Below are positions 1-47,847 of a stretch of DNA of 64,000 nt, piece by piece; position 1 is the stretch's first letter; each line of letters begins with the position of its first letter. Source of the DNA: a virus; IMG/VR virus record IMGVR_UViG_3300028569_002801, positions 1-64,000 of that record. One strand, given 5' to 3'. The translations under genes were made by a program, and so were the position numbers. Under the pieces are notes generated by a model, which saw only the letters and a program-made list of their open reading frames with translations, was not told the origin of the DNA and did no database searches.

Positions 1-306
1 TCATAGTTCTTGAATTTGAATCATTATCCAATCTACTTCTCCTTCAGTTTGGTTTCCAATAATATCTTCCGCAATTGGTGTATTATATGTTATATCCCAA
101 TCATGTTCGTCACCATAAAGTATTGCAACTTCCCATTCACTTTCATCTGATGTATATGAACCATATCTAAAACCTTTTTTAGATGTGGGACTTGGTAACT
201 TAAACCTAACAACAGATATACCATACCCATTAGGGAAAAATAATAGTCCGTGTAACCCCTCATAGTTTGGGTGGGGTTTAAATACTATGTCTTTAAATGA
301 TTTCAT
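1..306 (-). CDS. hypothetical phage protein
   Basis: 101-aa ORF, phage-like composition, no family recognised. Confidence 0.7.
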   Translation of the reverse strand: MKSFKDIVFKPHPNYEGLHGLLFFPNGYGISVVRFKLPSPTSKKGFRYGSYTSDESEWEVAILYGDEHDWDITYNTPIAEDIIGNQTEGEVDWIMIQIQEL

Positions 307-318
307 ATCACCAATTAA

Positions 319-471
319 TTATAAGAACGTTTTTTTGTGTTTTGTTTTTCTATTATAAAGATTCTTTGGCGTTTCAACTCTAGATACAAATCTCCCATCA
401 AAGAATCCATCCTCAACTTGATCCTTTCTTACTTGTGTTCTTTTCATCTTATGTTGATCATATGTCTTCAT
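319..471 (-). CDS. small basic protein, ArfA-like motif (not in ORF track)
   Basis: Manual translation MKTYDQHKMKRTQVRKDQVEDGFFDGRFVSRVETPKNLYNRKTKHKKTFL; F..RVE..K..Y.RK.KHK resembles the ArfA core; TACCTTTG promoter at 487-494. Confidence 0.6.
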   Translation of the reverse strand: MKTYDQHKMKRTQVRKDQVEDGFFDGRFVSRVETPKNLYNRKTKHKKTFL

Positions 472-505
472 CTCATTTGTTTTTTACAAAGGTATAAAAT
501 ATTAT

Positions 506-760
506 TTACCACTTTCTTTTTTTCTCAAGTTTTTTGGTTTTTTGTTCTTCCATCATTGTGTGGTATTCATCTTTAGTTAACCTTTTAAACGAATCTTCAT
601 CAATATTAAAATTACTAAACCTTTTTTTAACACTTGCCTTTGCATGGATGAGGTTTTTACTCCACACAATATTAGAACCTATAACCTTATTGTTTTCAAC
701 CATATCAAAAACATATAGGAACTCACCTTCTTTATTTGTCATCAACTTTTCCATCTTCAC
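506..760 (-). CDS. hypothetical protein
   Basis: 84-aa ORF in operon orientation. Confidence 0.6.
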   Translation of the reverse strand: MKMEKLMTNKEGEFLYVFDMVENNKVIGSNIVWSKNLIHAKASVKKRFSNFNIDEDSFKRLTKDEYHTMMEEQKTKKLEKKRKW

Positions 761-773
761 TTTTTTTTATTTG

Positions 774-854
774 TACCCCCGGAGAGACTCGAACTCTCAC
801 ACCGCTTGGCATCAGATCCTAAATCTGACGTGTCTACCATTCCACCACGGAGGC
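774..854 (-). tRNA. tRNA-Leu(TAG)
   Basis: GCCTCCG/CGGGGGT acceptor, TCAGA-TTTAGGA-TCTGA anticodon arm, long variable arm, GTTCGAG T loop. Confidence 0.93.
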
Positions 855-861
855 ATTTATA

Positions 862-1572
862 TTACCAATTTTTAATTCTTTCTTTCAGCTCATCAAGTGT
901 TATTGAACAACTATAATTCTTTTTATTGTTTTCACTATGTAATAATAATTTACAATTTGCAGGATGTTTAATGATTTCAGGGTCAACTCCATTTATAAAA
1001 CCCTCCCTTACACTATACATATGATCCTTACTAACTCCACCTAAATTATTACCTTTATTTTTAGGACTATACCATCCATATTCATTTACAATAGTTAAAT
1101 CAAATTTTTCAACATACTGTTTTATATTAAAATCAAAAACACACAAAGGTTTATAAAATTTATAAAATTTAGTTTTACAATTATCACAAATTAATTTGTG
1201 TTTTTCAATAACCTTACTTTCCTTACAAAATCGACAAATCTTAGATTCAGTAATCTTTTCTTTTTTAGGTTTAATTAATTTTTCTCTAACTTTTTGTTTT
1301 TGTTCTTCACTAACAACTCTACCTTTATTATTAAACATTGCAGCACAAGAACTATTACAAAATTTCCTATTATGGGATATTAACCCATCAAACTCATCAC
1401 TACAATTAAGACAAGTTATTTTTTTATGGTAAACAGTTTTAATCCCTAACCTATTGGATCTATTCATAATTGATCGATATGTTACACCCATAAGGTTAGC
1501 AATAGTTTGGTATCTAACCCCTTCGTCAACTAATTTTTCCAATTCCTCGTCCTTTTCTTTCGTCCATTTCAT
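862..1572 (-). CDS. putative HNH-like homing endonuclease (HTH, Zn fingers, NUMOD3-like segment)
   Basis: CxxC pairs, FCNSSC, SEEQKQKVREK, C-terminal DHMYS...HPANC...ENNKK; lies between two tRNA genes. Confidence 0.65.
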   Translation of the reverse strand: MKWTKEKDEELEKLVDEGVRYQTIANLMGVTYRSIMNRSNRLGIKTVYHKKITCLNCSDEFDGLISHNRKFCNSSCAAMFNNKGRVVSEEQKQKVREKLIKPKKEKITESKICRFCKESKVIEKHKLICDNCKTKFYKFYKPLCVFDFNIKQYVEKFDLTIVNEYGWYSPKNKGNNLGGVSKDHMYSVREGFINGVDPEIIKHPANCKLLLHSENNKKNYSCSITLDELKERIKNW

Positions 1573-1626
1573 ATAAATAAATATTACAAAAAAGAGTTTA
1601 TAACGAATTTTGAACCTATTTTTTTG

Positions 1627-1711
1627 AGTAAGTGGTCAGATTTGAACTGACGTGATACTTTCGTATACCGGTTTTGCAGACCGGCGGTTTCAACCACTCA
1701 CCCACACTTAC
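1627..1711 (-). tRNA. tRNA-Cys(GCA) with long variable arm
   Basis: GTAAGTG/CACTTAC acceptor, U73, CCGGT-CTGCAAA-ACCGG, variable hairpin ATAC-GAAA-GTAT, GTCAG-TTCAAAT-CTGAC. Confidence 0.88.
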
Positions 1712-1716
1712 ATATT

Positions 1717-2172
1717 TTAACGGCAGTGGTGATCTGCCGCTCTTGTTGCAATTTGATTGTCAGGTTTAATATTTGCTTTGTAACCTAACGACGTTGCCCA
1801 CCCAACAACGGGAGGAACTAGTTTTGAACTGTAATGTTTTTCTTCGCAGTTATAATCCAAATCTATTTCAACCTTAACTTTTACTTTTTGAGTTAACCAT
1901 TCGGCAACCTCAATTGAATAATCAGCTTCATTCCATAATCGTGTCCACTTATCTTTAATCTTCTTAACCTTTTGTTTATGAAGGATGTAGTGGACACCAC
2001 GATTTCCATACCTGTAAGCAATTACCGTAACGTATACGGTACTTCTTCTGTGGTTTTGTGAATCTGTACCGATGTGTATCTCAACCCAAGGACATTCCTT
2101 TAAAACGTCTAAGGTGTGATTTACCACATCAGGAACCGTATCACCATTAACCGTTCTAAATACTCTGTTCAT
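1717..2172 (-). CDS. RNase H-like YkuK (DUF458) family protein
   Basis: IHIGTDSQ...VIAYRYGNRG...RLWNEA.YS...IDLDYN...AADH motif pattern. Confidence 0.8.
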   Translation of the reverse strand: MNRVFRTVNGDTVPDVVNHTLDVLKECPWVEIHIGTDSQNHRRSTVYVTVIAYRYGNRGVHYILHKQKVKKIKDKWTRLWNEADYSIEVAEWLTQKVKVKVEIDLDYNCEEKHYSSKLVPPVVGWATSLGYKANIKPDNQIATRAADHHCR

Positions 2173-2188
2173 TGTTTCTATTTTTTTG

Positions 2189-2261
2189 TGGACAGAGAGG
2201 GTTTCGAACCCCCGACTCCAAGAGCTTCAATCCTGAGCTCTACCAACTGAGCTACCTATCC
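2189..2261 (-). tRNA. tRNA-Phe(GAA)
   Basis: GGATAGG/TCTGTCC acceptor, AGCTCAGTTGGTAGAGC D arm, loop TTGAAGC, GGTTCGAAACC. Confidence 0.9.
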
Positions 2262-2756
2262 TTATTTAACTTCAAACGCATGTAGTAATATACGTTTTTT
2301 CTTGGTTGAGTCCTCGTGGTTACCGATTACCACACCATCTTTGATTGTGAAGGCGTGACGACTAACTAACATAAAGAATGTCCCAACAGGGTTTTGTTTT
2401 GCAAATGTACCAACAGTCATTTTACGTTTAACTCTTTCACCATTTACTTTAACCTCGTACTCCAAAGTTCGTCTGTTGTTATTATTTACTTTACCAACAC
2501 ACTTAACTTTTTTGTAGTTTACTTGACTTCTATTTTCTGCAAGTTTAGTCATTTTATCTACAGTACCATAAGTACCGTTACGATCTCTACGATAAAAATT
2601 TTCTCTAACGTATTTGTGAGCGTAATCGTAAGATACATCAAAACAAGATGCAAATGCTCTTACAACACAATCGTTGGTTTCATTTTTTGCGATTGCAGAT
2701 TCTTCATAACCTTTAATGGCTTTTCCTGTAGTACAATATGGTAGTGCGTCTTTCAT
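2262..2756 (-). CDS. hypothetical protein (NDCVVRA motif, possible peptidase-like fold); start reassigned to MKDALPY
   Basis: Upstream part of the tracked ORF overlaps tRNA-Trp; ATG at 2756 lies 4 nt below a TATCTTTA promoter element. Confidence 0.7.
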   Translation of the reverse strand: MKDALPYCTTGKAIKGYEESAIAKNETNDCVVRAFASCFDVSYDYAHKYVRENFYRRDRNGTYGTVDKMTKLAENRSQVNYKKVKCVGKVNNNNRRTLEYEVKVNGERVKRKMTVGTFAKQNPVGTFFMLVSRHAFTIKDGVVIGNHEDSTKKKRILLHAFEVK

Positions 2757-2803
2757 ACTGTAAAGATACGAAATCTTTTTTAATTGGCAAAATTTAATTT
2801 TAG

Positions 2804-2874
2804 CACATGGTGTTAGAATCGAACTAACCCGTCGAGGTTTTGGAAACCTGACCGACACCTTGTCTGTACCATGT
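2804..2874 (-). tRNA. tRNA-Trp(CCA)
   Basis: ACATGGT/ACCATGT acceptor, G73, AGGT-TTCCAAA-ACCT, GTTAG-TTCGATT-CTAAC; compact D arm. Confidence 0.85.
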
Positions 2875-2912
2875 AAATTGCCCGACCTATCTCGGGACCG
2901 ACATCGGATCCG

Positions 2913-2985
2913 TACCCCCACAGAGATTCAAACTCCGATCTTTCCCTTAGAAGGGGAACGTCCTGTTCAGTTGGACGATGGGGGC
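2913..2985 (-). tRNA. tRNA-Arg(TCT)
   Basis: GCCCCCA/TGGGGGT, TTCCC-CTTCTAA-GGGAA, T loop TTTGAAT. Confidence 0.87.
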
Positions 2986-2990
2986 AAATA

Positions 2991-3165
2991 AAAGATGATA
3001 AATGACTTTATCAGGAATCTGGGGTTCGTATCACTACGATGCTTCACACACCATTAGAGAGTCGGGTTATTACATCAATACAATTAAGATTGAATACCTA
3101 TCCTTAGTGTGTACCCTTACGACACGTCTCTCCACGTCTGTCATTCTACGTTTTGTATCATCTTT
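2991..3165 (-). ncRNA. unidentified structured RNA in tRNA spacer (~175 nt)
   Basis: Closing stem AAAGATGATA/TATCATCTTT, then AATGAC/GTCATT, GGAGAG/CTCTCT, GTCG/CGAC, GGGT/ACCC. Confidence 0.55.
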
Positions 3166-3167
3166 TG

Positions 3168-3240
3168 TACCCTCAAAGAGATTCAAACTCCTATCTCCCG
3201 ATCCGTAGTCGGGTGTTCTCTTCAGTTGAACTATGTGGGT
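3168..3240 (-). tRNA. tRNA-Arg(ACG)
   Basis: CCCGA-CTACGGA-TCGGG anticodon arm, acceptor with one mismatch, T loop TTTGAAT. Confidence 0.87.
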
Positions 3241-3244
3241 AATT

Positions 3245-3373
3245 AAAGAATTTTGGTCAACCACTCGCATCCCACCAATCTCTTGTATCAAACTTTTTGT
3301 AGTCCAAACGATTATATCTCCTACGACTCATTCTCAACTCACTTGCCTAAGCCTTGTCCGTTGTAAATTCTTT
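3245..3373 (-). ncRNA. unidentified structured spacer RNA (~130 nt)
   Basis: Closing stem AAAGAATTT/AAATTCTTT, higher GC than flanks, no credible ORF. Confidence 0.4.
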
Positions 3374-3375
3374 TG

Positions 3376-3449
3376 TGTGTATGACAGGTTACGATCCTGC
3401 GACCTCTTGAACCACAATCAAGCACTCTGCCAACTGAGCTACATACACC
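3376..3449 (-). tRNA. tRNA-His(GTG)
   Basis: G-1, GTGTATG/CATACAC, CTTGA-TTGTGGT-TCAAG; A discriminator and T loop ATCGTAA are atypical. Confidence 0.88.
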
Positions 3450-3455
3450 ATGTTG

Positions 3456-3523
3456 TCCCGTATGTTGGACTTGAACCAACCTCAAGTCGGATATGAGCCA
3501 ACTTTGATCCCTGATCATACGGG
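3456..3523 (-). tRNA. tRNA(CAT) (Met or Ile2) with minimal D arm, 68 nt
   Basis: CCCGTAT/ATACGGG, GATC-AGG-GATC, GTTGG-CTCATAT-CCGAC, GTTGG-TTCAAGT-CCAAC. Confidence 0.7.
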
Positions 3524-3529
3524 TTATTG

Positions 3530-3613
3530 CGGAAGATATTGGAATCGAACCAAATACCCGAAGGTACATCTCGCTTAGCAGGCGGACCCCATCCCCATCA
3601 GGGTTTATCTTCC
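3530..3613 (-). tRNA. tRNA-Ser(GCT)
   Basis: GGAAGAT/ATCTTCC, G73, loop CTGCTAA, variable arm TACC-TTCG-GGTA. Confidence 0.85.
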
Positions 3614-3670
3614 AAAGAGCGTAGTGGGACTGCAGTTCCCCAAGGCTCCTACGCAAGTTACTCCTCTTTG

Positions 3671-3747
3671 TCGGCACAGTAGGAATTGAACCTACATGAA
3701 ACCAATTAACCTTTCAACCGCGTATCAGGCGGAGGGTATATGTGCCG
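3671..3747 (-). tRNA. D-arm-less tRNA-Ile(GAT)-like RNA with long variable arm
   Basis: CGGCACA/TGTGCCG-A acceptor, 8-nt linker, CCGC-CTGATAC-GCGG, extra hairpin TGAAA..TTTCA, GTAGG-TTCAATT-CCTAC. Confidence 0.65.
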
Positions 3748-3906
3748 TGGTGCGTATTTAGGAGTATTTCTTAACCACCCCCTCAGCTCGCCAGCGTCTC
3801 GGTGGTCGATACTTTAGTCGTGATGAACCCATCTGTCACTTCTTACTAGATTCTTGTGGTCTACTTACTCGAGACGTTACCACTGGGGAACCCAACATTG
3901 TATCTT
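3748..3906 (-). ncRNA. unidentified structured spacer RNA (~160 nt)
   Basis: Long stem CCCCAG..CGTCTCG / CGAGACG..CTGAGGGG enclosing TAGA/TCTA and GTGA/TCAC hairpins. Confidence 0.5.
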
Positions 3907-3984
3907 TGGCGGGTCAGGTAGGGCTCGAACCTACTATCCCTCGCTTAACAGGAGAAAGCTTATAACCACTTAAGCTTCTGGTCC
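3907..3984 (-). tRNA. tRNA-Asn(GTT), CCA encoded, mismatched stems
   Basis: Loop CTGTTAA, GTAGG-TTCGAGC-CCTAC, 3' GCCA; two acceptor-stem mismatches. Confidence 0.78.
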
Positions 3985-4045
3985 AATACTTGAACGTGTT
4001 ACCTAATTACACTAAGGGAGGACTCGAACCGACATTTTTCACTCG

Positions 4046-4126
4046 TGGGAGAGAAGGGACTCGAACCCCCAAGGCTTTCGCGACAGATTTACAGTCTGCT
4101 GAGCCAACCAATTGCTCAACTCTCCC
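4046..4126 (-). tRNA. tRNA-Tyr(GTA)
   Basis: GGGAGAG/CTCTCCC-A, GCAGA-CTGTAAA-TCTGT, variable arm GC-GAAA-GC. Confidence 0.93.
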
Positions 4127-4188
4127 AAAAATCTAATTCTATGATTCCGTCGTCACATAAGGACTATGAATTAGTAACGGTCTCCTCG

Positions 4189-4262
4189 TACACCCTACAG
4201 GATTCGAACCTGTGACCTGTTGTATGTAAGACAACCGCTACTACCAACTGAGCTAAGAGTGC
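4189..4262 (-). tRNA. tRNA-Val(TAC)
   Basis: GCACTCT/AGGGTGT-A, GTTGT-CTTACAT-ACAAC, GGTTCGAATCC. Confidence 0.92.
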
Positions 4263-4328
4263 TTATTTTAGTTTTTCTTTACGAATATAACCATTTTTTG
4301 GTATAAATCGCTCAGTTTTACTAAATTT

Positions 4329-4961
4329 TTAATCCTTCAAATTTTGGTATTCTTTTTTTAACTTGTGACATCTATTATAATTTCCCCCTTTAGCCGCTAA
4401 ACCAACTTCTATTAATGCTTGTCTCATATTCCAATTATGTATTAATAAGACATTTAAAAGTTTTTCATCTGAAATTTTATTTCTAAGTTGTTTTGTTTTA
4501 TTTCTACCCCTCCATGTGTCAGTCAATGCGTGACAATTTGGGCAAAGTAACTCTAAATTTTCTCTTTGGTTATTAAAGTGATTTCCGTCCTTATGTTCTA
4601 ACTCTAATGGAATTTCAACCCCCATCCAAGTTTTTAATTCACATTTATTACATGAACCATCTTGTTCATAGTAAATCCTTTTTTTTAGTGATTCGAATTT
4701 TAAATCTTCATATTTTGAATTGATAATTTTTATCTTATCGTTTTCTTTTCTTTTTTCCGCGATTTGGTTCCAAAAACCATCAGGTCTTTTTCTATTTGCT
4801 TCTTTAACTTTTTCAGAATTTTTGTTTGATTTAGATTTTTTTTCCTTATCTTTTTCTGACCACACCCTACTATTACGGCACATTAAAGAACAATAACTAA
4901 TCAAACCTTTTTTTGGTTCAAACTCTTTTTGACATTTAATACAATTTTTCATAATTCCCAT
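4329..4961 (-). CDS. HNH homing endonuclease
   Basis: CNKC...LELEHKDGNHFNNQRENLELLCPNCH HNH motif; lies between tRNA-Lys and tRNA-Val. Confidence 0.88.
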   Translation of the reverse strand: MGIMKNCIKCQKEFEPKKGLISYCSLMCRNSRVWSEKDKEKKSKSNKNSEKVKEANRKRPDGFWNQIAEKRKENDKIKIINSKYEDLKFESLKKRIYYEQDGSCNKCELKTWMGVEIPLELEHKDGNHFNNQRENLELLCPNCHALTDTWRGRNKTKQLRNKISDEKLLNVLLIHNWNMRQALIEVGLAAKGGNYNRCHKLKKEYQNLKD

Positions 4962-5024
4962 TTATTAATAAATATCAAGTCGAACCTAAAAAACACATAA
5001 AACTTAAAAAATACTTAAAATTTG

Positions 5025-5095
5025 TTCCCCCGGACGGTAACGCTCCGACTTCTTTCCGTTAAAAGCGGAAAGCTTCACTTTAAAGCTTCGAGGGA
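5025..5095 (-). tRNA. tRNA-Lys(TTT), atypical T loop
   Basis: TCCCTCG/CGGGGGA-A, TTCCG-CTTTTAA-CGGAA, T loop AGCGTTA. Confidence 0.82.
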
Positions 5096-5097
5096 TT

Positions 5098-5133
5098 CTA
5101 TTTACGACTCTTGTCATACTTGTCACTTTCCAT
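5098..5133 (-). CDS. 11-codon micro-ORF MESDKYDKSRK
   Basis: ATG preceded by an A-rich region; stop 2 nt before tRNA-Lys. Confidence 0.3.
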   Translation of the reverse strand: MESDKYDKSRK

Positions 5134-5167
5134 GATACTTGTTTTTTATTTGTTTATTTATTTATAG

Positions 5168-5240
5168 TAGGGTAGACCGGACTCGAACCGACATCGTCCA
5201 CGTCCCAAACGTGGTGACTTACCAATTAGTCAACTACCCT
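5168..5240 (-). tRNA. tRNA-Pro(TGG)
   Basis: AGGGTAG/CTACCCT-A, CCACG-TTTGGGA-CGTGG, GGTTCGAGTCC. Confidence 0.92.
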
Positions 5241-5310
5241 AGTTAAAAAATCAATACCCTGACTCCTTTCGAACTTTGAGGATTCGTATCATTCATTCTG
5301 TATTGATTCG

Positions 5311-5396
5311 AGGAGAGAGCGGGATTCGAACCCGCGGAACCGTGAAGTTCTCCGGTTTTCAAGACCGGTGCAATAAACCAACTCTACCATCTCTCC
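5311..5396 (-). tRNA. tRNA-Ser(TGA)
   Basis: GGAGAGA/TCTCTCC, CCGGT-CTTGAAA-ACCGG, long variable arm. Confidence 0.92.
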
Positions 5397-5402
5397 TTAT
5401 TG

Positions 5403-5473
5403 TTGTTCCCCAAGGACTCGAACCCCAATTCCACGGACCAAAACCGCGTGTCCTTCCATTAGACGAGGGAACA
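5403..5473 (-). tRNA. tRNA-Gln(TTG)
   Basis: TGTTCCC/GGGAACA, CGCGG-TTTTGGT-CCGTG, GGTTCGAGTCC. Confidence 0.9.
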
Positions 5474-5509
5474 AAATAAAGCCAATATTTCAAAGAACTT
5501 TTTCTTTTG

Positions 5510-5582
5510 AGGTTCCTGTCAGGTTCGAACTGACGACTCCGGGTTACAAAGCCGGGGTATTACCAAACTATACTAAGGAACC
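5510..5582 (-). tRNA. tRNA-Thr(TGT)
   Basis: GGTTCCT/AGGAACC, CCGG..TTTGTAA..CCGG, GTCAG-TTCGAAC-CTGAC. Confidence 0.88.
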
Positions 5583-5596
5583 GAATTTTTGGGTAT

Positions 5597-5628
5597 AAAA
5601 AAACCCGAACTGTTTTGAGTTCGGGTCT
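5597..5628 (-). terminator. intrinsic terminator directly upstream of the tRNA array (candidate attenuator)
   Basis: ACCCGAACT-CAAAAC-AGTTCGGGT followed by a T tract, about 15 nt before tRNA-Thr. Confidence 0.8.
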
Positions 5629-5660
5629 TATATTTCTTTTATATTTTTAGTTAATCTTTA

Positions 5661-5771
5661 TCAACTCATAAATGAAAATGCCCTAATATGCGACTTAAGC
5701 GTACGATACACGTTAAACGACCACTGAATGCTCGGGTTACAAATGTTCATATGTCTATTAGTTGTTTTCAT
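5661..5771 (-). CDS. candidate attenuator leader peptide, 36 aa
   Basis: MKTTNRHMNICNPSIQWSFNVYRTLKSHIRAFSFMS, ends TGA-TAA; TATTTATA motif just upstream; codon set mirrors the array anticodons. Confidence 0.6.
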   Translation of the reverse strand: MKTTNRHMNICNPSIQWSFNVYRTLKSHIRAFSFMS

Positions 5772-5981
5772 CTTGTTATAAATATATCGTTGTTTCTAAA
5801 AGTTTTAATTCTTGTACGAATTTAGTTGTTTTTTTCTATTTGACAAGTGTTTTTGTCATTTATTTTTAAATATTCTTCTTCTTGTTCTTCCTCCAACCTA
5901 CGTAAAAACACGTAGTAATCTTCAGAGTTTATGAACTCATTGTGTATTAATTCTAAAATTTCTTCCATAAAATTGTGTTAG

Positions 5982-6055
5982 TGATCCCGAATGGATTCGA
6001 ACCATTGACCTACTCATTAGAAGTGAGTTGCTCTATCCAACTGAGCTACGGAACC
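5982..6055 (-). tRNA. tRNA-Arg(TCT), second copy, upstream of the leader/terminator
   Basis: GGTTCCG/CGGGATC-A, AGCTCAGTTGGATAGAGC, ACTCA-CTTCTAA-TGAGT, GGTTCGAATCC. Confidence 0.95.
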
Positions 6056-6061
6056 ATATTA

Positions 6062-6247
6062 TTAGAGTTTCTTAACCTCGTAAACGTGTCCCGAATCTGA
6101 ATTGGTTTGGAAAATCTCTTTCATTTCTTCAGCCTCTTTTTCAGTTTCAAACTCCCAAACCTCAGTATCACTATTTAAAAGTATTACAGGAACTTTCCTA
6201 CTCATAGGGCTTGAATTCATTTTAACGTGTTTAACTATTACGTACAT
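6062..6247 (-). CDS. hypothetical protein
   Basis: 61-aa ORF with TATTTATA upstream. Confidence 0.65.
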   Translation of the reverse strand: MYVIVKHVKMNSSPMSRKVPVILLNSDTEVWEFETEKEAEEMKEIFQTNSDSGHVYEVKKL

Positions 6248-6328
6248 ATCTTTATTTTTTTATAAATATAAGAAATAAAAAACCCCCAGTCAATAAAGAA
6301 AGGGGGGGATTATTAAACATAATTAGTA

Positions 6329-6628
6329 TTATCTACCAATAACTATCTGATCAAAATTAATGTCGTTTGCTCCTTTCATTTTACCTTCAACCTCATCGTA
6401 CATATATGATTTTACAACTGCAGTTACAGATTGTTCCGCTTGTGCAATTTTGGTTTCCATCCAATCCTCAAGTTCATCACCTTCTTCCATTAACTCCCAC
6501 ATTTTATAACATAGTGTTGCCATTGTAAAAAGTTGTTGTTTCGCCATATAAGAACCGTCCTGATTATTTTCCTTAAGGATCTTAACCATTCGTTCCAATT
6601 GTTTTTCTGTTATAATAATTTTGCTCAT
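6329..6628 (-). CDS. hypothetical protein with shared N-terminal motif
   Basis: MSKIIITEKQLERMVKILKE; followed by a terminator-like hairpin at about 6277-6308. Confidence 0.75.
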   Translation of the reverse strand: MSKIIITEKQLERMVKILKENNQDGSYMAKQQLFTMATLCYKMWELMEEGDELEDWMETKIAQAEQSVTAVVKSYMYDEVEGKMKGANDINFDQIVIGR

Positions 6629-7449
6629 TAGTAAGTTATATTAGTACATTTTTTAGCCTCACATGCTTTTATTGCTTTAGAATTACAATATTTCATATCT
6701 TTATTTGGTCCAGGCATACAATTTAAAGATTTAGGACATTCAATTATGCGTTTATATCCTTGTGTTGTGTCGTTTGTTCTTATATGCCATGTACATCCCT
6801 CAACAAACCCATCTTTATCTAAATTAATATTGTCTTTCAGATCTGTATCATCTTTTTGTCCAACCCCAATACACTTATTAAATTTATTATAATCAGGAAC
6901 AGGAACCATTATAATGTGATCGTAAACACATTTTTTTAATGTATCACAATTAACATCATCTAACATTTTTTTAGGGTCATCAAACTTTAAATCATTGTCT
7001 TGTTTTTGATTATTATCATCATCACATTTACAATCAGGTAAATCAATACATCCTTCTTCTTGTAATGACATTAAAGTGTTGTAACCAACTTTACCGTCAA
7101 CAGTCAATTTGTTATCTTTTTGAAACTCTTTTACTGCATCTCTTGTATGTTGTCTAAATTTTCCATCACAACTATTTTTATCTTTTGCACAACCGGTGTT
7201 CATTCCACCACCTTCGTACTTTGCATTGTAACCACATTTAGCAAGTGCGTGTTGTATTTCTTTAACCGCATCGCCATTTGATCCGTATGCTGCCATTTTT
7301 CTTTTACAAATAATTTCACATAAATCATCACCTTCTTGAATTATTCCTCCTTCGTAAATTTCATTAAGATGTTGTGTTCTTGTTGCATAAGTATGCATTC
7401 CAATAATACGTTTTCTTTCTTGTTCGGTAATCAAAAAACTTTTATTCAT
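6628..7449 (-). CDS. peptidoglycan-binding-domain, Cys-rich protein
   Basis: GSNGDAVKEIQHALAKCGY...DGKF...TRDAVKEFQKDNKLTVDGKVGYNT matches the PG_binding_1 pattern. Confidence 0.8.
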   Translation of the reverse strand: MNKSFLITEQERKRIIGMHTYATRTQHLNEIYEGGIIQEGDDLCEIICKRKMAAYGSNGDAVKEIQHALAKCGYNAKYEGGGMNTGCAKDKNSCDGKFRQHTRDAVKEFQKDNKLTVDGKVGYNTLMSLQEEGCIDLPDCKCDDDNNQKQDNDLKFDDPKKMLDDVNCDTLKKCVYDHIIMVPVPDYNKFNKCIGVGQKDDTDLKDNINLDKDGFVEGCTWHIRTNDTTQGYKRIIECPKSLNCMPGPNKDMKYCNSKAIKACEAKKCTNITY

Positions 7450-7460
7450 CTAATATAGTA

Positions 7461-7943
7461 TTAAGCGGATTTAACGGTTTCTAAAAACCCCTGATTTATT
7501 CCTTTCAGTTGGGATATCGCTTCAGAGTATGCTTTCATACCTTCATTTAATTTTTCCATTCTATTTTCAATATCTTCTCCTCGTCTTGTTGTTCCTAATT
7601 TTTCAACTCTTTTTTCAACTTTTTCTTTGTTTGCTTCATCATATAAAAGCGACAAATCGTTTTCCATTTCAGTTAATTCATTTTGCATTGAGTTTGCTCT
7701 GTTTCTAACTCTACTATATGCCGCCTCAAGTGCAGGATTTAATTGGGATCCTCCAGCAAATGTTGATCCAAGATTTTGTCCAAACGTTTTAAATCGACTA
7801 AAGAACCCTGCAGCGTTTGCCTTTAATCTATCCCACCATCCTTCATTTAATGGTTCAATTCTTTGTTTACTTTCTTGAATAAATCTTTTTTCTGCAATTT
7901 TATTCAATTCTTGCATTTGTCTAATTTTTGTGTAACTTTTCAT
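7461..7943 (-). CDS. hypothetical coiled-coil protein
   Basis: LNEGWWDRLKA motif then helical region. Confidence 0.75.
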   Translation of the reverse strand: MKSYTKIRQMQELNKIAEKRFIQESKQRIEPLNEGWWDRLKANAAGFFSRFKTFGQNLGSTFAGGSQLNPALEAAYSRVRNRANSMQNELTEMENDLSLLYDEANKEKVEKRVEKLGTTRRGEDIENRMEKLNEGMKAYSEAISQLKGINQGFLETVKSA

Positions 7944-7983
7944 TTTTACTTTTTTAATATAAATAGTTTATTGTTTTATAAAT

Positions 7984-8352
7984 TTACCATGATTTACATG
8001 CCCAATATCTTGGTTTCCATCTTGGTCCAGGAGTATCGCAGTTCATTCTTGCCCTAAACGATTTTCTACGTTCAGGATTATTCTTTTTTATAACCATTCG
8101 TTTACCATGTGCTGATTTACCACCAAACCCAAAGTTTACTTTAACAACCTTTCCTTTGTCGTTTTTAACGTACACCTTGAACTTTTTAATGTCTCCTTGC
8201 ATAATCTTACCAAGTTGAATATTTCTTCCCTGATACTCAGCCTCGTTTAAAAAATTAACTTCTTCAACCGATCCAAATATGTCCTCATAGATTAAAGAAT
8301 CATTAATAAATTCTTCGTTTAATACTTTTTTTATGATTTGGTTAATGTTCAT
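7984..8352 (-). CDS. conserved phage protein (KVNFG...RRKSFRAR.NC...RYWAC..W family)
   Basis: Basic C-terminal domain recurrent in large phages; function unknown. Confidence 0.75.
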   Translation of the reverse strand: MNINQIIKKVLNEEFINDSLIYEDIFGSVEEVNFLNEAEYQGRNIQLGKIMQGDIKKFKVYVKNDKGKVVKVNFGFGGKSAHGKRMVIKKNNPERRKSFRARMNCDTPGPRWKPRYWACKSW

Positions 8353-8355
8353 ATT

Positions 8356-9735
8356 TTATAAATATGGTTTAATAAATTTATCGAATCTAGTATCAGGAGC
8401 GTCAGGGTTACCGGCTTTCAATGCTAACTTGAAGAATTCGTCATTTGGGTCAATTTGTTTACTTGGGAAGATACCTTTTGGATCATACTCTTTATTTACT
8501 TGTTGTTGTAAAACTTTTGTAATTTTATTATTTGTGTCCCAATATATTTTCCACCTAACAACAGGTCTAACGTATGGTTGACCATTTACGTTCATTTGAT
8601 ATTTAATCTCGTAACTAGACATGTGTGAGTCTGCCGATTTTTTATCTTTGTCTACCTGAAGTTGTACCTGACCACACGAATCAAAGGTGTTTGCTTGTGC
8701 TCCAGCATTTAATGAGTTTTTACCGTTACAGAAATAAGCGCCGGTTAATACAAACCCATCTCTACCTAATTTTTTGAACTCATCAATATTATTTGGTATT
8801 TTACCTCCAATTGGGTCTTTTGGTGTATTATCTGTTGAGCTACTTGATGCCGTTGCACATACATCCATTTCTACTATTACGACTTGTCCCGGATTTTTGT
8901 ATTTTGACGTGTCTCTTGTCGAGTCGATGTTACCTCCTGTATCAACAGTATAACCAACAACTTGTGCAGTCACATTTGGTCCAAAATTTAATTTTATTGC
9001 CGGTAACTGTTTTTGTAGTTCAGCATATAAACCATTGGCTCTTTGAACCGCAAGTTCCTTGTTTTTAAGTCCGTCTGATGCACTATAAGAAACATTATCA
9101 GGATATGGTTGAACATTATAATTATTGTCCATTTCAGGTTTTATAACCTTAGAATACTTGTTACTTGCCCCACCTATAAGTTTAATTCCAGCAATGTACG
9201 CCTTACCCGCAGCATAGTCTTTACTAACTGCCGGATTATTTTGTAATTCAGCTTTAACTTTATTAATAAAATTTGTAATGTTTGCAGGATTTGACGTTAC
9301 TTTGGCAGCAAAACTACCTATCACAGTTATCTTCGTACAATTAGCACCAAGAGCTGAAGGTGATACACCATCAATAATTGTTTGTCCTCCTGCGGTTACT
9401 CCACTATCCATACCACCACTTGTCGATTGTTGTGTTCCTAAATTTTGTTGTGTGGTACCACCACCTGTACCTGTTGAACAACCTGCAGGTTCTCCAAAGA
9501 CTCTTGTACAAATAGCCTCAATTCCTTTTGGGTTAGTTTGTTCTCTCCAATTAGGCGTTAATCCTTCTGATTTAGATGCGTAATAATATTTATTACCTTC
9601 TTTTTTATATTGATAAGGGTCACCCTTTCCTCCTTGCTTAACTTCTTGTTCTGAAAGAACTTGTTTTATTGCTTGTTTATGTAAACCTAAAATTCTATTT
9701 TTTTCACTTTCAGTGATTATAAACTTATTTCTCAT
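8356..9735 (-). CDS. hypothetical virion-associated protein
   Basis: N-terminal ITESEKNRILGLH...VLSEQ motif; central GGAS...NKELAVQRA resembles an OmpA-like segment (weak). Confidence 0.7.
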   Translation of the reverse strand: MRNKFIITESEKNRILGLHKQAIKQVLSEQEVKQGGKGDPYQYKKEGNKYYYASKSEGLTPNWREQTNPKGIEAICTRVFGEPAGCSTGTGGGTTQQNLGTQQSTSGGMDSGVTAGGQTIIDGVSPSALGANCTKITVIGSFAAKVTSNPANITNFINKVKAELQNNPAVSKDYAAGKAYIAGIKLIGGASNKYSKVIKPEMDNNYNVQPYPDNVSYSASDGLKNKELAVQRANGLYAELQKQLPAIKLNFGPNVTAQVVGYTVDTGGNIDSTRDTSKYKNPGQVVIVEMDVCATASSSSTDNTPKDPIGGKIPNNIDEFKKLGRDGFVLTGAYFCNGKNSLNAGAQANTFDSCGQVQLQVDKDKKSADSHMSSYEIKYQMNVNGQPYVRPVVRWKIYWDTNNKITKVLQQQVNKEYDPKGIFPSKQIDPNDEFFKLALKAGNPDAPDTRFDKFIKPYL

Positions 9736-9763
9736 GATGTTTTTTTAATAAATATCACATAAA

Positions 9764-9792
9764 TAAAAAAAGGTGAGATTTCTCTCACCTTT
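9764..9792 (-). terminator. intrinsic terminator
   Basis: AGGTGAGA-GAAA-TCTCACCT plus T tract. Confidence 0.8.
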
Positions 9793-9854
9793 CAGGGCCG
9801 AAACGGATTATGTTTCGAACTACCACCACTTTGTTTTAAAGAGAAACAAAGAAA

Positions 9855-10121
9855 CTACCCCTCTAACTTGGATTTTGCAACCACCATTTCAGCCATGGAC
9901 ACCTCCTTTGCTAGACCGATTACCATACACTCCTTTAACATTTGTGCCGGTACGTGAATCAAAAAGTCTTTCCCGTTAAACGTTGAAAGGTTATCACCTA
10001 ACTCTATGGATGCGTGTATCATTTTTAAAAACAATTTGAACTGTACGTCATCCATAAATGTCTCATTCAAAACTTCCCCGTATTTAGGGTGAACAATCGT
10101 TACGTGTTTTAGTGTTGCCAT
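9855..10121 (-). CDS. hypothetical protein
   Basis: 88-aa ORF. Confidence 0.7.
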   Translation of the reverse strand: MATLKHVTIVHPKYGEVLNETFMDDVQFKLFLKMIHASIELGDNLSTFNGKDFLIHVPAQMLKECMVIGLAKEVSMAEMVVAKSKLEG

Positions 10122-10162
10122 ATCTTTGATTTATGTAAATGTAATACCTTTTTTTTAAATTA

Positions 10163-10582
10163 TCAAATTTCTTTGTACTCAATTTTTGAAATAACTATAT
10201 TCATTTCACGGTTATCAATTCCAAAATATTTTAGTTCTTGTGTTACTGCACCTAAAATAGCGTTTCTGTAGTATTTGTTGTGTGTTTTAGCGTTTCGTTG
10301 ACAATAACGGTTACTTCCATAATAAAAGTATTCTCCCTGAGATCTCATATCAACAATGACATCAATTTCGTATACGTATTTTTCTTTATTTTCTAACCAT
10401 TGTGTATGTCTGTGTGAATACTTTCTAACTGATTTAATTTTAATCACTGAGTTATTTAGATCACTATCCAAATAATACCCATCATTTTGTAATGGTCTAA
10501 TTAACATATTTTTAGTTAGTTTTTTAACAGACTTAATGTGTGTGTCTGAGATTGCCTTTCCTATTTTGTCCCCGTTTTCCAT
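10163..10582 (-). CDS. hypothetical protein
   Basis: 139-aa ORF; TATCTTTG 4 nt upstream of ATG. Confidence 0.7.
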   Translation of the reverse strand: MENGDKIGKAISDTHIKSVKKLTKNMLIRPLQNDGYYLDSDLNNSVIKIKSVRKYSHRHTQWLENKEKYVYEIDVIVDMRSQGEYFYYGSNRYCQRNAKTHNKYYRNAILGAVTQELKYFGIDNREMNIVISKIEYKEI

Positions 10583-10614
10583 ACATCAAAGATAGAAAAA
10601 AAAATTTAATGCAC

Positions 10615-10647
10615 AAAAAAATGGATACAAATATTATCTGTATCCAT
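10615..10647 (-). terminator. intrinsic terminator downstream of the large ncRNA
   Basis: ATGGATACAGAT-AAT-ATTTGTATCCAT plus T tract. Confidence 0.75.
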
Positions 10648-10687
10648 CAATTTTTTTCCTTATAAGATTTTAAACCTAAAAATAAAA

Positions 10688-11615
10688 ACCTGAGATTACA
10701 GTTTTTGTTGAGAATCTTTAGAGTCATTATTGTTTCTACTCTTATCCACCATCTTTTGAATGGTATTTCTCAGTGACGATTATTTAGGTGAATCACTCCT
10801 TGAGGTACTAGCTACTCTCTCATTACTCAACTCTCTTCGAGACTGCCGTCCCAACTCTTCCTTGCGGGAATAGAGGTTTTTGGTAAGAATATCGTTAAAC
10901 TTGCGGTTTAAACGATGCAATGAACGGCTCATTACTATGTAGTCACCTTTCACTATTACCTGACGAACACTTTTGCTTTTTAGTTTTAGTTTTACCTTTT
11001 CCATAAAAGTTTTTGTGTTGTGGATTGACCAAAGCAGTGGTCCGTCTTTCAGATTCGTTGTCTTTTGAACAACGAAATACCAAACTGCTTCGTGAAATGT
11101 CCCCATCTCAATATTTCAAGACTACTTCGAGATTTAACCTTTGGTAAGGTTCAATCAAGGTTAGTAACAACACCACTTGTACACCAACATACCTTTCGGT
11201 TTTAAGTATCCTATCATAATGGAACACGCAATAATAAAATTGGATAACCTTATTTTTTGCAATATCCCTACGAGTTATTCCTATTGATGTTCCCATCTCA
11301 AACTGACAACCCACATTGCCAATTCATCTAACCACTTTCCCTACAGCGTTGCCCTCGGTACTAAAGATTAAACGGTATCCCGCTTGTGTACTCAATCTCA
11401 ACAAGTCCGAAGACTCACCAAGACGCAAACCCATTACACGTTAGGTTCACTTTATCCTACTTTCGTAGTTTATTTTAATGGACCATACACGGCCCAATGA
11501 CTTAATTTAGTTTCACTCTTAAAGTAAGGGAGGTGTTAAGTCTCTCTTTTAAATGTGACGACTGTTTCGGTCGGATTTAGATTTTCAAAGAACGTTTCAG
11601 GACTTTTCCTGATTT
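10688..11615 (-). ncRNA. large ornate ncRNA, GOLLD-like candidate
   Basis: ~0.9 kb without a credible ORF, GC above background, many GNRA/UUCG hairpins, long-range CTGAGA/TCTCAG pair, own promoter, boxA and terminator. Confidence 0.7.
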
Positions 11616-11629
11616 GTTTTACAAAGTTA
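11582..11629 (-). promoter_or_regulatory. Bacteroidota-type promoter (-7 TAACTTTG), 5' hairpin and boxA-like GTTCTTTGAAAA
   Basis: TAACTTTG at 11622-11629, TTG upstream, GTTCTTTGAAAA at 11582-11593. Confidence 0.65.
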
Positions 11630-11671
11630 AGTCTTTTTTTTTATTTAGACAAGTACTTTATGAACTTTTTT

Positions 11672-11818
11672 TTAAACTTTTTCTACGTACACCTCGTGTG
11701 TTCCGTATTTGTTAGCTTGATCAGTAGCAAACTCACCGTTAGGTGTGTAAAACTTCTCCCCTTTTGCTCCGTAGTAGTAGTACATTACGTTCTCAACCAC
11801 TTCAGTGTTTTCACCCAT
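11672..11818 (-). CDS. small hypothetical protein, 48 aa (not in ORF track)
   Basis: MGENTEVVENVMYYYYGAKGEKFYTPNGEFATDQANKYGTHEVYVEKV; A-rich leader; TAGATTTG promoter at 11880-11887. Confidence 0.6.
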   Translation of the reverse strand: MGENTEVVENVMYYYYGAKGEKFYTPNGEFATDQANKYGTHEVYVEKV

Positions 11819-12025
11819 TTTTTTTGAGTTTAAAGGTTAATATTTCAATTTATTGTTAGGACGTTTCCTAATTGTTTTACAAATCTAATTATATTAAATT
11901 GTTTTGTCAAATATTTAAATGAAAAAAATTGATTTTTTACGGAAGTAAATATAAATATAACTATGTACACCAAAAGTTACTTTAAAATACAAATTTTTTA
12001 TTCTTTTTAATTGTATTTATACTAT

Positions 12026-19497: not shown

Positions 19498-19788
19498 CTA
19501 ATTCAAATAAATAAATCCCATATGATGTTCCATAAATGGGATTAGTCTTTTTTCTACGGTTTCTTTTGTACCACCATTTAAATCCACAATTAAAATTAAG
19601 ATTTGTTTTCTTGTTGGTTCAAGTGGTGAGTCTTCTTTTTTGGTATTTTCCTCAACAATGGATCTAACACCGTCAAAGAATTTTTCAGGGTTAACGTCTC
19701 CTATTAACATTTTTAATTGCTGGGGGTTCTTATCAAAGAACCCCTTAAATTGTGTCATATAAATATCAATGTCAACACTCATTATCAA
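19498..19788 (-). CDS. hypothetical protein
   Basis: 96-aa ORF. Confidence 0.7.
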   Translation of the reverse strand: MIMSVDIDIYMTQFKGFFDKNPQQLKMLIGDVNPEKFFDGVRSIVEENTKKEDSPLEPTRKQILILIVDLNGGTKETVEKRLIPFMEHHMGFIYLN

Positions 19789-25133: not shown

Positions 25134-25628
25134 TCAATTTTTAAGTGATCTTTCAAGTACCTTATATATGTCCGTGAAAATTTCAATATCTGATTTTGTT
25201 TTTTTATACTTGTTATCAAAAATTTGTCTAAAAAAAGAATTAATATTATCTTTTATTTTTTGATCCTGTTGGTTATAAAAGACTTCAAAGAAAAAACTTT
25301 CAAAGAACTCGGAGTCATCTTCTTTAAAATTAAATCTTATACTTTCTTTGGTAAAATTTTCAACGGTTTTGTCCCAACACCATTTAAAATGTTTCTTTTT
25401 TTGATCATTAGTCATACCAACCTTTGTTTCTTTATTACTTTCAAAATCATCACCTAAATAAGTGTCATTTAATAAGTTTAAAAAAGATATGCAGAAATCT
25501 CTAAAAAGTTCAGTAAGTTCAGGTATAATATTATTTGCGAGATACCAAGCGGTGATATCTTCTTGGGACATTGGTTTGGCTAACCAATCAAAAAAACGAC
25601 CCATGTTGTTATCTGTGTTCATATACAA
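25134..25628 (-). CDS. hypothetical protein
   Basis: 164-aa ORF; start codons lie inside a long hairpin. Confidence 0.7.
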   Translation of the reverse strand: MYMNTDNNMGRFFDWLAKPMSQEDITAWYLANNIIPELTELFRDFCISFLNLLNDTYLGDDFESNKETKVGMTNDQKKKHFKWCWDKTVENFTKESIRFNFKEDDSEFFESFFFEVFYNQQDQKIKDNINSFFRQIFDNKYKKTKSDIEIFTDIYKVLERSLKN

Positions 25629-46245: not shown

Positions 46246-47847
46246 TTAACCAACTCTTATAGGTCTTGGACATATTAATCCAGTTTTTACCAATATCACT
46301 TCTTGAGGGTTAACAGAAGAGTTAACCGATTTACATAATGTAGGTGTTATTGTTATGTTTTGTATATTAACACTATCTTTTATCATTCCAAATAAATTGC
46401 AATGATCGCTTTCAACACAAGGAGTGTTTATGTATTGTACGATAGTTCCTGATATGGTCCCACTACCCGATAATTGTACAGTATAAGAAGTTGTGTAAGA
46501 ACTTAAATTTATATTACCTACTTCACACGCTGGATTAAAAGATGTTGATCCAACTGTCGATCCGGTTGTTGGTGATGATATCGTAAACCCACCTGTTTGG
46601 TTTGTTGTGATATTATTACTATAACTAATCGTAGGTGAAGTAATCGTATAAGCAGTTGTATTAACATTAAATAATAAATTCATATTAATAACGGTACCTA
46701 CAGGTAAAGGGTATGGACTAACACTTATCGACCAATTAGAGGTTTTTGTTGTTGAGTTACCTACCGTTATATTTGAACCAGGTGTTAAAATCAAACTTAC
46801 GTTATAATTTTGAAATAATTGTTGTGGTGTTAAAATCACTGTTTGACTTATAACTGTTAAATTAGAATCCTTAACATAAACAGTGTAAGTACCAGAAGAT
46901 AAACCAATAAAAGTATTAGATACTTGGTAATTTACAGAATCAATGGAATATAAATATGGTGATAATCCACCATTAGGGGTTATTGTTATAGAACCGTTAC
47001 TTGTTGTAGAACAAGTTGGGTTTGTCTTATTAACTGTCATTGTTAATGGTGGTGTTTGACAAATACCTGAGCTAACATATACAGTTGATCCATACGATAA
47101 TTGTCCGGTTAATGTCCAATTACCTGTTGGTGGTATAGTTGGTGATGCATAATATAAACCTCCCGGATATGTCCACCCACTAACGTTCCATTGTGTTGTA
47201 CCTGTATTATAATATATTGTTTGTGTATTGCTTGTCCAAGACGGATATCCATTTATTGTTGATCCTGAATTAAAATTAAATTGTGTTATATTTGTCCCTT
47301 GAGTAAGTTGTAAACACAAATCGTTTGGATATACGGGTGTCGGTGTAGGTGGTGGTAGACATTCGGTACAACCTGTAAACGGTCCATCAGATACTATTGG
47401 GAAATTACCAATATAAGTTTGTCCTGTATATAATGTTGTTCCACTGTTTGTCCAACAACCTATTTGTGTTGTTAACTGATAAACTGATCCACCACTTAAT
47501 GGGTTAACTAAATCTGCTAAATAATAAATAAAATTACCGGGAGTTTTACAATCCTCAAATGTATCGAGATAAAAACTATCATAACCAACGGTACATGTTG
47601 TTGTCGCGGTAAAATCGCCATAATAATCAACAACAGTCGCGGTATAATTACCGGGACTTAAATTAGTTAATAATGTCCCTTGTGAACCATTGTTCCAAGT
47701 AACATTATACGGAGACGTTCCTCCTGTTACAAATAACGCAATTAACCCATTGGTTGATTGAGGTGTTGACGCATTTATACTATCACACTCCAACCCCAAA
47801 GGTAAAATTGTTATGATATTACAACTATTTCCACTTAATTGTCCCAT
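46246..47847 (-). CDS. tail-associated protein with SprB repeats and PT linker
   Basis: TGGTSPYNVTWNNG...LSPGNYTATVVD; NPTC....GSITI...GG.SPYLYS...GLSSGTYTVYVKDS. Confidence 0.8.
   Translation of the reverse strand: MGQLSGNSCNIITILPLGLECDSINASTPQSTNGLIALFVTGGTSPYNVTWNNGSQGTLLTNLSPGNYTATVVDYYGDFTATTTCTVGYDSFYLDTFEDCKTPGNFIYYLADLVNPLSGGSVYQLTTQIGCWTNSGTTLYTGQTYIGNFPIVSDGPFTGCTECLPPPTPTPVYPNDLCLQLTQGTNITQFNFNSGSTINGYPSWTSNTQTIYYNTGTTQWNVSGWTYPGGLYYASPTIPPTGNWTLTGQLSYGSTVYVSSGICQTPPLTMTVNKTNPTCSTTSNGSITITPNGGLSPYLYSIDSVNYQVSNTFIGLSSGTYTVYVKDSNLTVISQTVILTPQQLFQNYNVSLILTPGSNITVGNSTTKTSNWSISVSPYPLPVGTVINMNLLFNVNTTAYTITSPTISYSNNITTNQTGGFTISSPTTGSTVGSTSFNPACEVGNINLSSYTTSYTVQLSGSGTISGTIVQYINTPCVESDHCNLFGMIKDSVNIQNITITPTLCKSVNSSVNPQEVILVKTGLICPRPIRVG

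Follow-up and report, generated by a model that had tools for sequence, protein, structure and literature searches.

A candidate leader-peptide attenuator ahead of a phage tRNA array, written largely in the codons that the array serves

Leader-peptide attenuators are textbook regulators of amino-acid operons, among them trpL, hisL, leuL and pheL and the multivalent leaders of thr and ilvGMEDA. For transfer RNA (tRNA) genes no such report was found: full-text literature searches yielded no published phage tRNA attenuator, and Rfam none for tRNA genes. Here we analyse a viral sequence of 64,000 nucleotides (nt), positions 1 to 64,000 of IMG/VR record IMGVR_UViG_3300028569_002801 (hereafter the window; the source contig has 114,715 base pairs (bp)), in which a 36-codon open reading frame (ORF) and an intrinsic terminator stand ahead of an array of tRNA genes. 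A sequence-only reading of the window had proposed that the ORF is the leader of a tRNA-sensing attenuator. After comparison with related phages, the element is best explained as a leader-peptide (ribosome-mediated) transcription attenuator gating tRNA genes, the first of two or more, a reading to which we give a probability of about 0.6.

The amino-acid attenuators, reviewed in papers such as PMC2965389 and PMC3082878, share with the phage locus a promoter, a short ORF (predicted to be translated here) and an intrinsic terminator before the regulated genes. They also share an alternative helix, a candidate one in the phage, that takes the 5′ arm of the terminator and overlaps the end of the ORF, and codons that match the product supplied. 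Unlike them, the phage leader precedes tRNA genes rather than biosynthetic enzymes, and its codons cover about 18 tRNA species, most of them once or twice, with no tandem codon run. It also differs in that no convincing 1:2 'protector' hairpin was found, and in the marginal antiterminator of the window copy.

T-box riboswitches sense uncharged tRNA in the leaders of aminoacyl-tRNA synthetase genes, chiefly those of Firmicutes; each binds one tRNA directly and works without translation. The phage leader resembles them as a leader RNA with terminator/antiterminator logic that would report tRNA status. Unlike in the T-box, its conserved feature is a reading frame, and no T-box covariance-model match was found in window positions 1-12000 at E-values up to 1. 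Among the Rfam leader families none reached threshold; the best, Thr_leader (RF00506), scored 24.7 bits against a cut-off of 55 (E = 0.44), mainly over the terminator.

Phage tRNAs can act as a counter to tRNA-targeting defences, which gives a rationale for raising tRNA supply when decoding fails; by analogy, the present leader might be linked to such a function. The nearest published case of a stress-induced tRNA array is the trn operon of Anabaena sp. PCC 7120, a long array induced by translational stress and controlled by promoter repeats and the repressor TrcR (PMC8421152, PMC10272220). Both are accessory tRNA arrays, and expression of the Anabaena array rises when translation is impaired; unlike the phage leader, the Anabaena system is cellular. 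The words attenuator, leader and terminator are absent from the text of PMC8421152, and attenuator, leader peptide and uORF from that of PMC10272220.

The features of the locus, all on the minus strand of the window, are as follows.

5817-5846, minus strand: promoter of the Bacteroidota type, with the -33 TTG at 5846-5844 and the -7 box TAAATTCG at 5824-5817.
5772-5810, minus strand: predicted 5′ untranslated region (UTR), A/U-rich, with no Shine-Dalgarno sequence and with high nucleotide conservation.
5661-5771, minus strand: leader ORF, 36 codons plus TGA.
5650-5665, minus strand: stop-codon hairpin of 6 bp, GUUGAU-AAAG-AUUAAC, from the RNAalifold consensus.
5597-5629, minus strand: intrinsic terminator, with a 12-bp stem (5629-5600), a 6-nt loop (5617-5612) and a run of seven U (5603-5597).
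5024-5582, minus strand: first tRNA sub-block, Thr(UGU), Gln(UUG), Ser(UGA), Pro(UGG) and Lys(UUU), all with U at anticodon position 34 (U34) and promoter-free up to the terminator.
773-4262, minus strand: remainder of tRNA block 1, Val to Leu-UAG, interspersed with HNH endonuclease and RNaseH-like genes.

The 36-codon ORF at 5771-5661, with the peptide quoted in the sequence-only reading, is present as claimed and is bounded upstream by an in-frame TAG at 5798-5796. Transcription is predicted to start near 5810. A search for TTG-N17-21-TAnnTTYG gave a single match between 6400 and 1, the leader promoter, which is kept in all full-length relatives at a fixed 22-24 nt from the aligned leader start. 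The window has C for T at one position of the -7 box (5817-5824), where the other 32 aligned leaders read TAnnTTTG. Beginning 31 bases past the leader stop, the terminator hairpin folds at -16.3 kcal/mol (z = -5.4; none of 200 shuffles was as good), and its helix is paired at 99.2% in 33 sequences, with compensatory changes at four pairs; it is as strong as had been asserted. The U tract ends 14 nt before tRNA-Thr(UGU), a gap so short that no promoter fits into it. An intrinsic terminator thus lies between the leader ORF and the tRNAs, with a promoter-free gap behind it.

As in an attenuator whose leader codons match the product of the controlled genes, the codons of the ORF are those of the tRNA block. 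Under strict wobble the block serves 33 of the 36 leader codons, against 57% of the codons of phage genes (P about 5 × 10−6); under lenient rules, with U34 reading whole four-codon boxes, it serves 35, against 68% in genes (P about 2 × 10−5). Among the 182 other ORFs of this genome with 30-45 codons, not one reaches this served fraction. The leader matches all 18 tRNA boxes, with P = 2.5 × 10−5 under gene codon usage and 1.3 × 10−3 when served codons only are drawn. The leader has eight G-ending codons where 2.0 are expected given the peptide (P = 4 × 10−4). The proposal that the leader mirrors the array is therefore borne out far beyond chance when set against the codon usage of the genome.

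Where relatives have more sequence downstream, a second tRNA block follows (Leu-UAA, Met, Ile-UAU, Gly-UCC, Ala-UGC, Glu-UUC and Asp-GUC). Ahead of it stands a second leader, a conserved ORF of 22-24 codons (26 distinct ORFs) that begins MKNLHI and has its own terminator. Leader 2 is rich in Leu, Ile, Gly, Ala, Glu and Asp, has no Pro, Gln or Trp, and thereby complements leader 1. Examples of the cassette and the counts of the two divided codon sets are as follows.

Relative L029, 9350-9418: leader-2 cassette.
Relative L018, 10080-10154: leader-2 cassette.
Relative L015, 11561-11635: leader-2 cassette.
Leu codons, CUN to UUR: 101 to 5 in leader 1, 1 to 92 in leader 2, 608 to 1843 in phage genes.
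Ile codons, AUY to AUA: 96 to 1 in leader 1, 14 to 46 in leader 2, 1441 to 934 in phage genes.

The split fits the presence of Leu-UAG and Ile-GAU in block 1 and of Leu-UAA and Ile-UAU in block 2; the leader codon counts are not phylogenetically independent, yet the Leu codons arise at many alignment columns. In the 19 relatives with both cassettes, codons served by block 2 only make up 10% of leader 1 (nearly all of them AUG), 42% of leader 2 and 26% of genes. The expected covariation of leader codon boxes with array anticodons is thus seen, with synonymous Leu and Ile codons divided between the leaders just as their tRNAs are between the blocks.

The window's contig ends 773 nt past tRNA-Leu(UAG) and has no leader 2, and several related contigs reach about 290 kb; the block-2 tRNAs are most likely missing here because the genome is incomplete. 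Asp, Glu, Gly and Leu-UAA, described earlier as absent from both leader and array, are indeed absent from both in the window; such tRNAs do occur in relatives, past the point where this contig ends. There they lie behind a leader and terminator of their own, which answers the objection that they might belong to the same transcript. For the same reason we rejected the idea that the codon mirror is undone as an artefact of the contig end: in relatives, a matched leader precedes the missing tRNAs.

The relatives were collected with the RNaseH-like protein of the array (1717-2172, PF04308) as bait, which gave 66 related viral loci; baits at 6631-7449 and 8359-9735 gave few loci and none with a usable array. 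Searches of phage databases returned DNA matches to tRNA-Arg only, and no match for a neighbouring protein of 556 amino acids. An initial pattern scan of viral sequences was unspecific and its matches were filtered with a profile. The profile search and one metagenome scan gave 70 distinct leaders, 33 of them from viral contigs, with 58 distinct ORFs and 49 distinct peptides. Identity over 5865-5476 is 68-96%, compared with 67-85% (mostly 67-75%) over the neighbouring coding DNA at 6300-5916. The order is constant: promoter (TTG, about 19 nt, TAnnTTTG), A/U-rich UTR, ORF, stop hairpin, A-rich spacer, terminator and tRNA-Thr, with Gln as first tRNA in one locus. Across leaders the ORF has 34-37 codons and the gap from the stop to the terminator arm is 21-32 nt. 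The stems of the stop hairpin vary by group and stay complementary (GUUAAU/AUUAAC, GUUAAA/UUUAAC, AUGGUA/UAUCAU), with both sides changed at two pairs by formal count. A candidate pairing at the start codon, AGAUGAAAA with UUUUCAUUU, is invariant.

In all 58 distinct ORFs the leader frame is open and both alternative frames contain stops, and every indel is a multiple of three. Entropy sums are 18.3, 19.6 and 20.0 at codon positions 1, 2 and 3, and the median ratio of non-synonymous to synonymous substitution rates (dN/dS) is 0.70; judging from these alignments, the leader peptide is under no clear selection. A frame kept while the protein is not is the pattern predicted for a regulatory leader ORF. 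The conservation of ORF and terminator in related phages, on which the proposal had depended, thus holds in 70 distinct sequences with the frame always kept. Our first reading, that of a chance ORF in a spacer, was rejected after the relatives were aligned.

These data bear on two other explanations. An ordinary gene for a small, basic phage protein of 36 amino acids, with its own terminator and beside the tRNAs by chance, would agree with the frequency of small ORFs in the tRNA region (48 and 61 amino acids upstream of the leader) and with the N- and C-terminal residues, which are fairly conserved in groups G1-G3 of the leader-1 sequences. We consider it highly improbable: with dN/dS at about 0.7, third positions are no more variable than the others, group G4 has a different C-terminus while the RNA pairing is retained, the peptide has no family match in Pfam or PHROG, and its promoter would reach the tRNAs by no route but through the terminator. 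A small structured or dual-function RNA acting in trans, freed by the terminator or by an RNase P cut at tRNA-Thr and with the ORF secondary, would account for nucleotide conservation that is equal over codon positions, for conserved hairpins and for a unit with its own promoter and terminator; a known precedent is rnTrpL, a trans-acting attenuator RNA of Sinorhizobium (PMC7968998). Such an RNA would be compatible with attenuation. As an explanation of the locus it seems quite unlikely, given an open frame in 58 of 58 ORFs with the other frames closed and indels in-frame, a codon partition that tracks the tRNA blocks, and no Rfam family beyond the sub-threshold Thr_leader match.

An attenuator further calls for an RNA that competes with the terminator. 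The pairings put forward in the sequence-only reading, 5672-5663 with 5621-5613 and 5738-5730 with 5610-5602, exist in the window sequence and fail across the family: 76.9% of their cells are paired against 77.3% after shuffling, their covariation lies below the shuffle mean, and pairing in the core of the first reaches just 58.5%. Folding of transcripts cut before the terminator 3′ arm revealed a different helix, which encloses the stop hairpin and joins the 3′ end of the ORF to the spacer and the terminator 5′ arm.

5671-5686, minus strand: candidate antiterminator 5′ strand, within codons 29-34, UUAGGGCAUUUUCAUU.
5620-5634, minus strand: candidate antiterminator 3′ strand, made up of the A-rich spacer and the beginning of the terminator 5′ arm.

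The consensus helix 5686-5671/5634-5620 is paired in 90.6% of cells, with one covarying pair. In G4, the most divergent leader-1 group (seven sequences), the pairing reaches -17 to -24 kcal/mol (z -3 to -6; 0-2 of 200 shuffles as good). In these sequences the ORF side and the arm change together, and the arm has a paired probability of 0.74-0.97 in nascent RNA. The final three or four codons of leader 2 pair with the terminator 5′ arm (paired probability 0.6-0.8 in nascent RNA) through compensatory pairs, GGAGAUGG:CCAUCUCC, GAGAGGG:CCCUCUC, GAAGAUGG:CCAUCUU and GAAGAGGG:CCCUCUU, and shifts in its peptide (Met/Arg, Glu/Lys) preserve the helix. Over the leader-1 family, the ORF and arm of the same sequence pair at -8.55, compared with -7.60 ± 0.19 when partners are permuted (0 of 2000 permutations as good, uncorrected for phylogeny). 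On these comparisons the predicted switch RNA is well supported for the family and marginal for the window copy.

The attenuator would then work as follows. The strong promoter would give a leader RNA of about 210 nt, and a ribosome would translate the 36-codon ORF, written almost wholly in codons of the block tRNAs. With fast decoding, the ribosome at the last codons or the stop would cover or melt the ORF 3′ end and free the terminator 5′ arm; the terminator would form and RNA polymerase would halt 14 nt before tRNA-Thr. If the ribosome lagged at the codon of a scarce tRNA, pairing of the ORF 3′ end with the terminator 5′ arm and the A-rich spacer would form the antiterminator, and transcription would continue into the tRNA genes. 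We infer translation of the ORF, regulated termination and the proposed direction of the switch; by analogy, the leader might sense loss of host tRNAs or attack by an anticodon nuclease.

Several observations weigh against the attenuator reading. In the window, which belongs to G1, the antiterminator has -7.5 kcal/mol and a z score near 0, no better than shuffled sequences; it is degenerate (UUAGGG versus CCCGAA, with a central mismatch), and the terminator 5′ arm has a paired probability of 0.11 in nascent RNA against a shuffle mean of 0.35. The swap test is weak for G1-G3. Folding with the ribosome masked, proposed earlier as a check, went against the switch: the terminator is predicted in every ribosome state of the window leader (probability 1.0 whether the ribosome is absent, sits at the stop or stalls at codon 13 or 24), in an equilibrium calculation that is blind to kinetics and serves only to show that G1-G3 have no thermodynamic switch. 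The leader has no tandem run of regulatory codons in the style of trp or his, sense codons occurring at most three times and repeats never adjacent. One leader codon, Ala GCA, has no block tRNA, ten of the 58 distinct leader ORFs carry one Asp, Glu or Gly codon, and the surplus of rare G-ending codons could stem from the needs of RNA structure. A tRNA-Arg(UCU) gene lies upstream of the leader and outside its control. A consensus promoter lies behind tRNA-Lys in at least 12 relatives, with more copies before later tRNAs, so that in those relatives most of block 1 can be transcribed without crossing the terminator.

Part of this evidence would suit a constitutively leaky terminator behind a translated upstream ORF, with a fixed partial readthrough and internal promoters driving the tRNAs. 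The ORF would then be kept because ribosomes protect the RNA or exclude Rho or nucleases, and its codon content would follow without any sensing. Besides the window antiterminator that beats no shuffles, the terminator predicted at every ribosome position and the internal promoters of relatives, RNA-library contigs speak for this: metatranscriptome contigs of relatives (three runs, at least 85% identity) cover the leader, and three bridge the terminator into tRNA-Thr. One of the contigs ends at 5810, the start predicted from the promoter, and another at 5796. Both the bridging and these ends are weak hints only; the contigs are of low depth, from runs that hold 5-13% of the sequence words of the stretch; DNA carry-over is possible, and uncovered parts carry no meaning. 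We hold a merely leaky terminator to be rather unlikely as the explanation of the element, since it leaves unexplained the Leu/Ile codon split in step with two tRNA blocks, the 18 of 18 boxes in one 36-codon ORF, and the joint changes of ORF end and terminator arm in leader 2 and G4.

The attenuator reading is supported for the family, through its architecture, frame conservation, codon partition and compensated antiterminators, and is only partly supported for the window, because the window's own antiterminator is weak and the pairings first proposed fail. The window copy may have a weak switch, or just a leaky terminator.

If the reading is right, each phage tRNA block would sit behind a 'test' ORF in its own codons, and feedback from the decoding speed of about 18 tRNA species would act as a homeostat of translation capacity, a proposition that we rate at even odds. 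Such a homeostat could also turn on replacement tRNAs upon degradation of host tRNAs or their cleavage by a defence nuclease. The purpose and control of phage tRNA genes have been debated for decades. A leader that samples many codons together would amount to a multi-input sensor within about 110 nt and to a new principle of design, and it would offer a direct experimental handle on how phages respond to tRNA depletion, including by tRNA-cleaving defence.

The array had been described as 18 tRNA genes. Fourteen are secure and the anticodons named are present: ARAGORN finds 13 tRNAs from 5582 down to 773, and Rfam adds Asn-GTT at 3910-3984 (34.5 bits, above cut-off). The other four, Ser-GCT (3531-3613), Trp-CCA (2804-2875), Ile-GAT (3673-3746) and a gene with anticodon CAT (about 3455-3530, minus strand), are non-canonical, with D arms that are very short or missing, sub-threshold or no Rfam scores and no ARAGORN call. 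ARAGORN found no other tRNAs in the 114,715-bp contig beyond the tRNA region. The description had made no mention of the gene upstream of the leader:

5981-6055, minus strand: tRNA-Arg(UCU), at the same position in most relatives.

No DNA match links the segment 4045-3670 with the Asn/Ile region of L030 and L015, the closest relatives, whose versions are canonical. Inserted between the tRNAs are HNH genes at 4329-4961 and 862-1572 (minus strand; PHROG 14736 and relatives) and the RNaseH-like gene at 1717-2172 (PF04308, minus strand).

The part of block 1 that would depend exclusively on the leader is Thr-Gln-Ser-Pro-Lys, all U34, and the later tRNAs of the block may receive extra inputs. Inside the window's tRNA block no strict promoter match was found, only weak -7-like TAnnTTCG boxes at 4988 and 4289, and the HNH gene at 4329-4961 occupies the site where relatives have the promoter after tRNA-Lys. 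Relatives carry a second, stereotyped promoter class scattered through the tRNA region (TTGGTAGATTAA, about 10 nt, TAnnTTTG).

Relative L029, 6841, 9594, 10026 and 10779: examples of second-class promoters.

This class differs from the TTGTCAA-type promoter of the leader, which may mean different timing classes.

A protein of 533 amino acids encoded at 46246-47847 (minus strand) contains an SprB repeat (PF13573), which, taken with the type of promoter, suggests a host among the Bacteroidota. The carriers of the leader are a family of large freshwater phages, probably of Bacteroidota, and the family is abundant in lake metagenomes; the switch, if real, would be widespread.

A full-length GOLLD RNA (RF02032; 311 bits, E = 7 × 10−89) lies at 10687-11092 on the same strand, about 5 kb upstream of the tRNA region. 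A further motif, GTTCTTTGA(A/C)ATATTGG, occurs four times on the minus strand of the window (5490-5498, 11585-11593, 19733-19741 and 25300-25308) against 0.86 copies expected. Its sites fall just past tRNA-Thr, near the GOLLD gene and, in many relatives, right after the leader-2 terminator (for example at about 9450 in L029); the motif could be a processing or antitermination signal.

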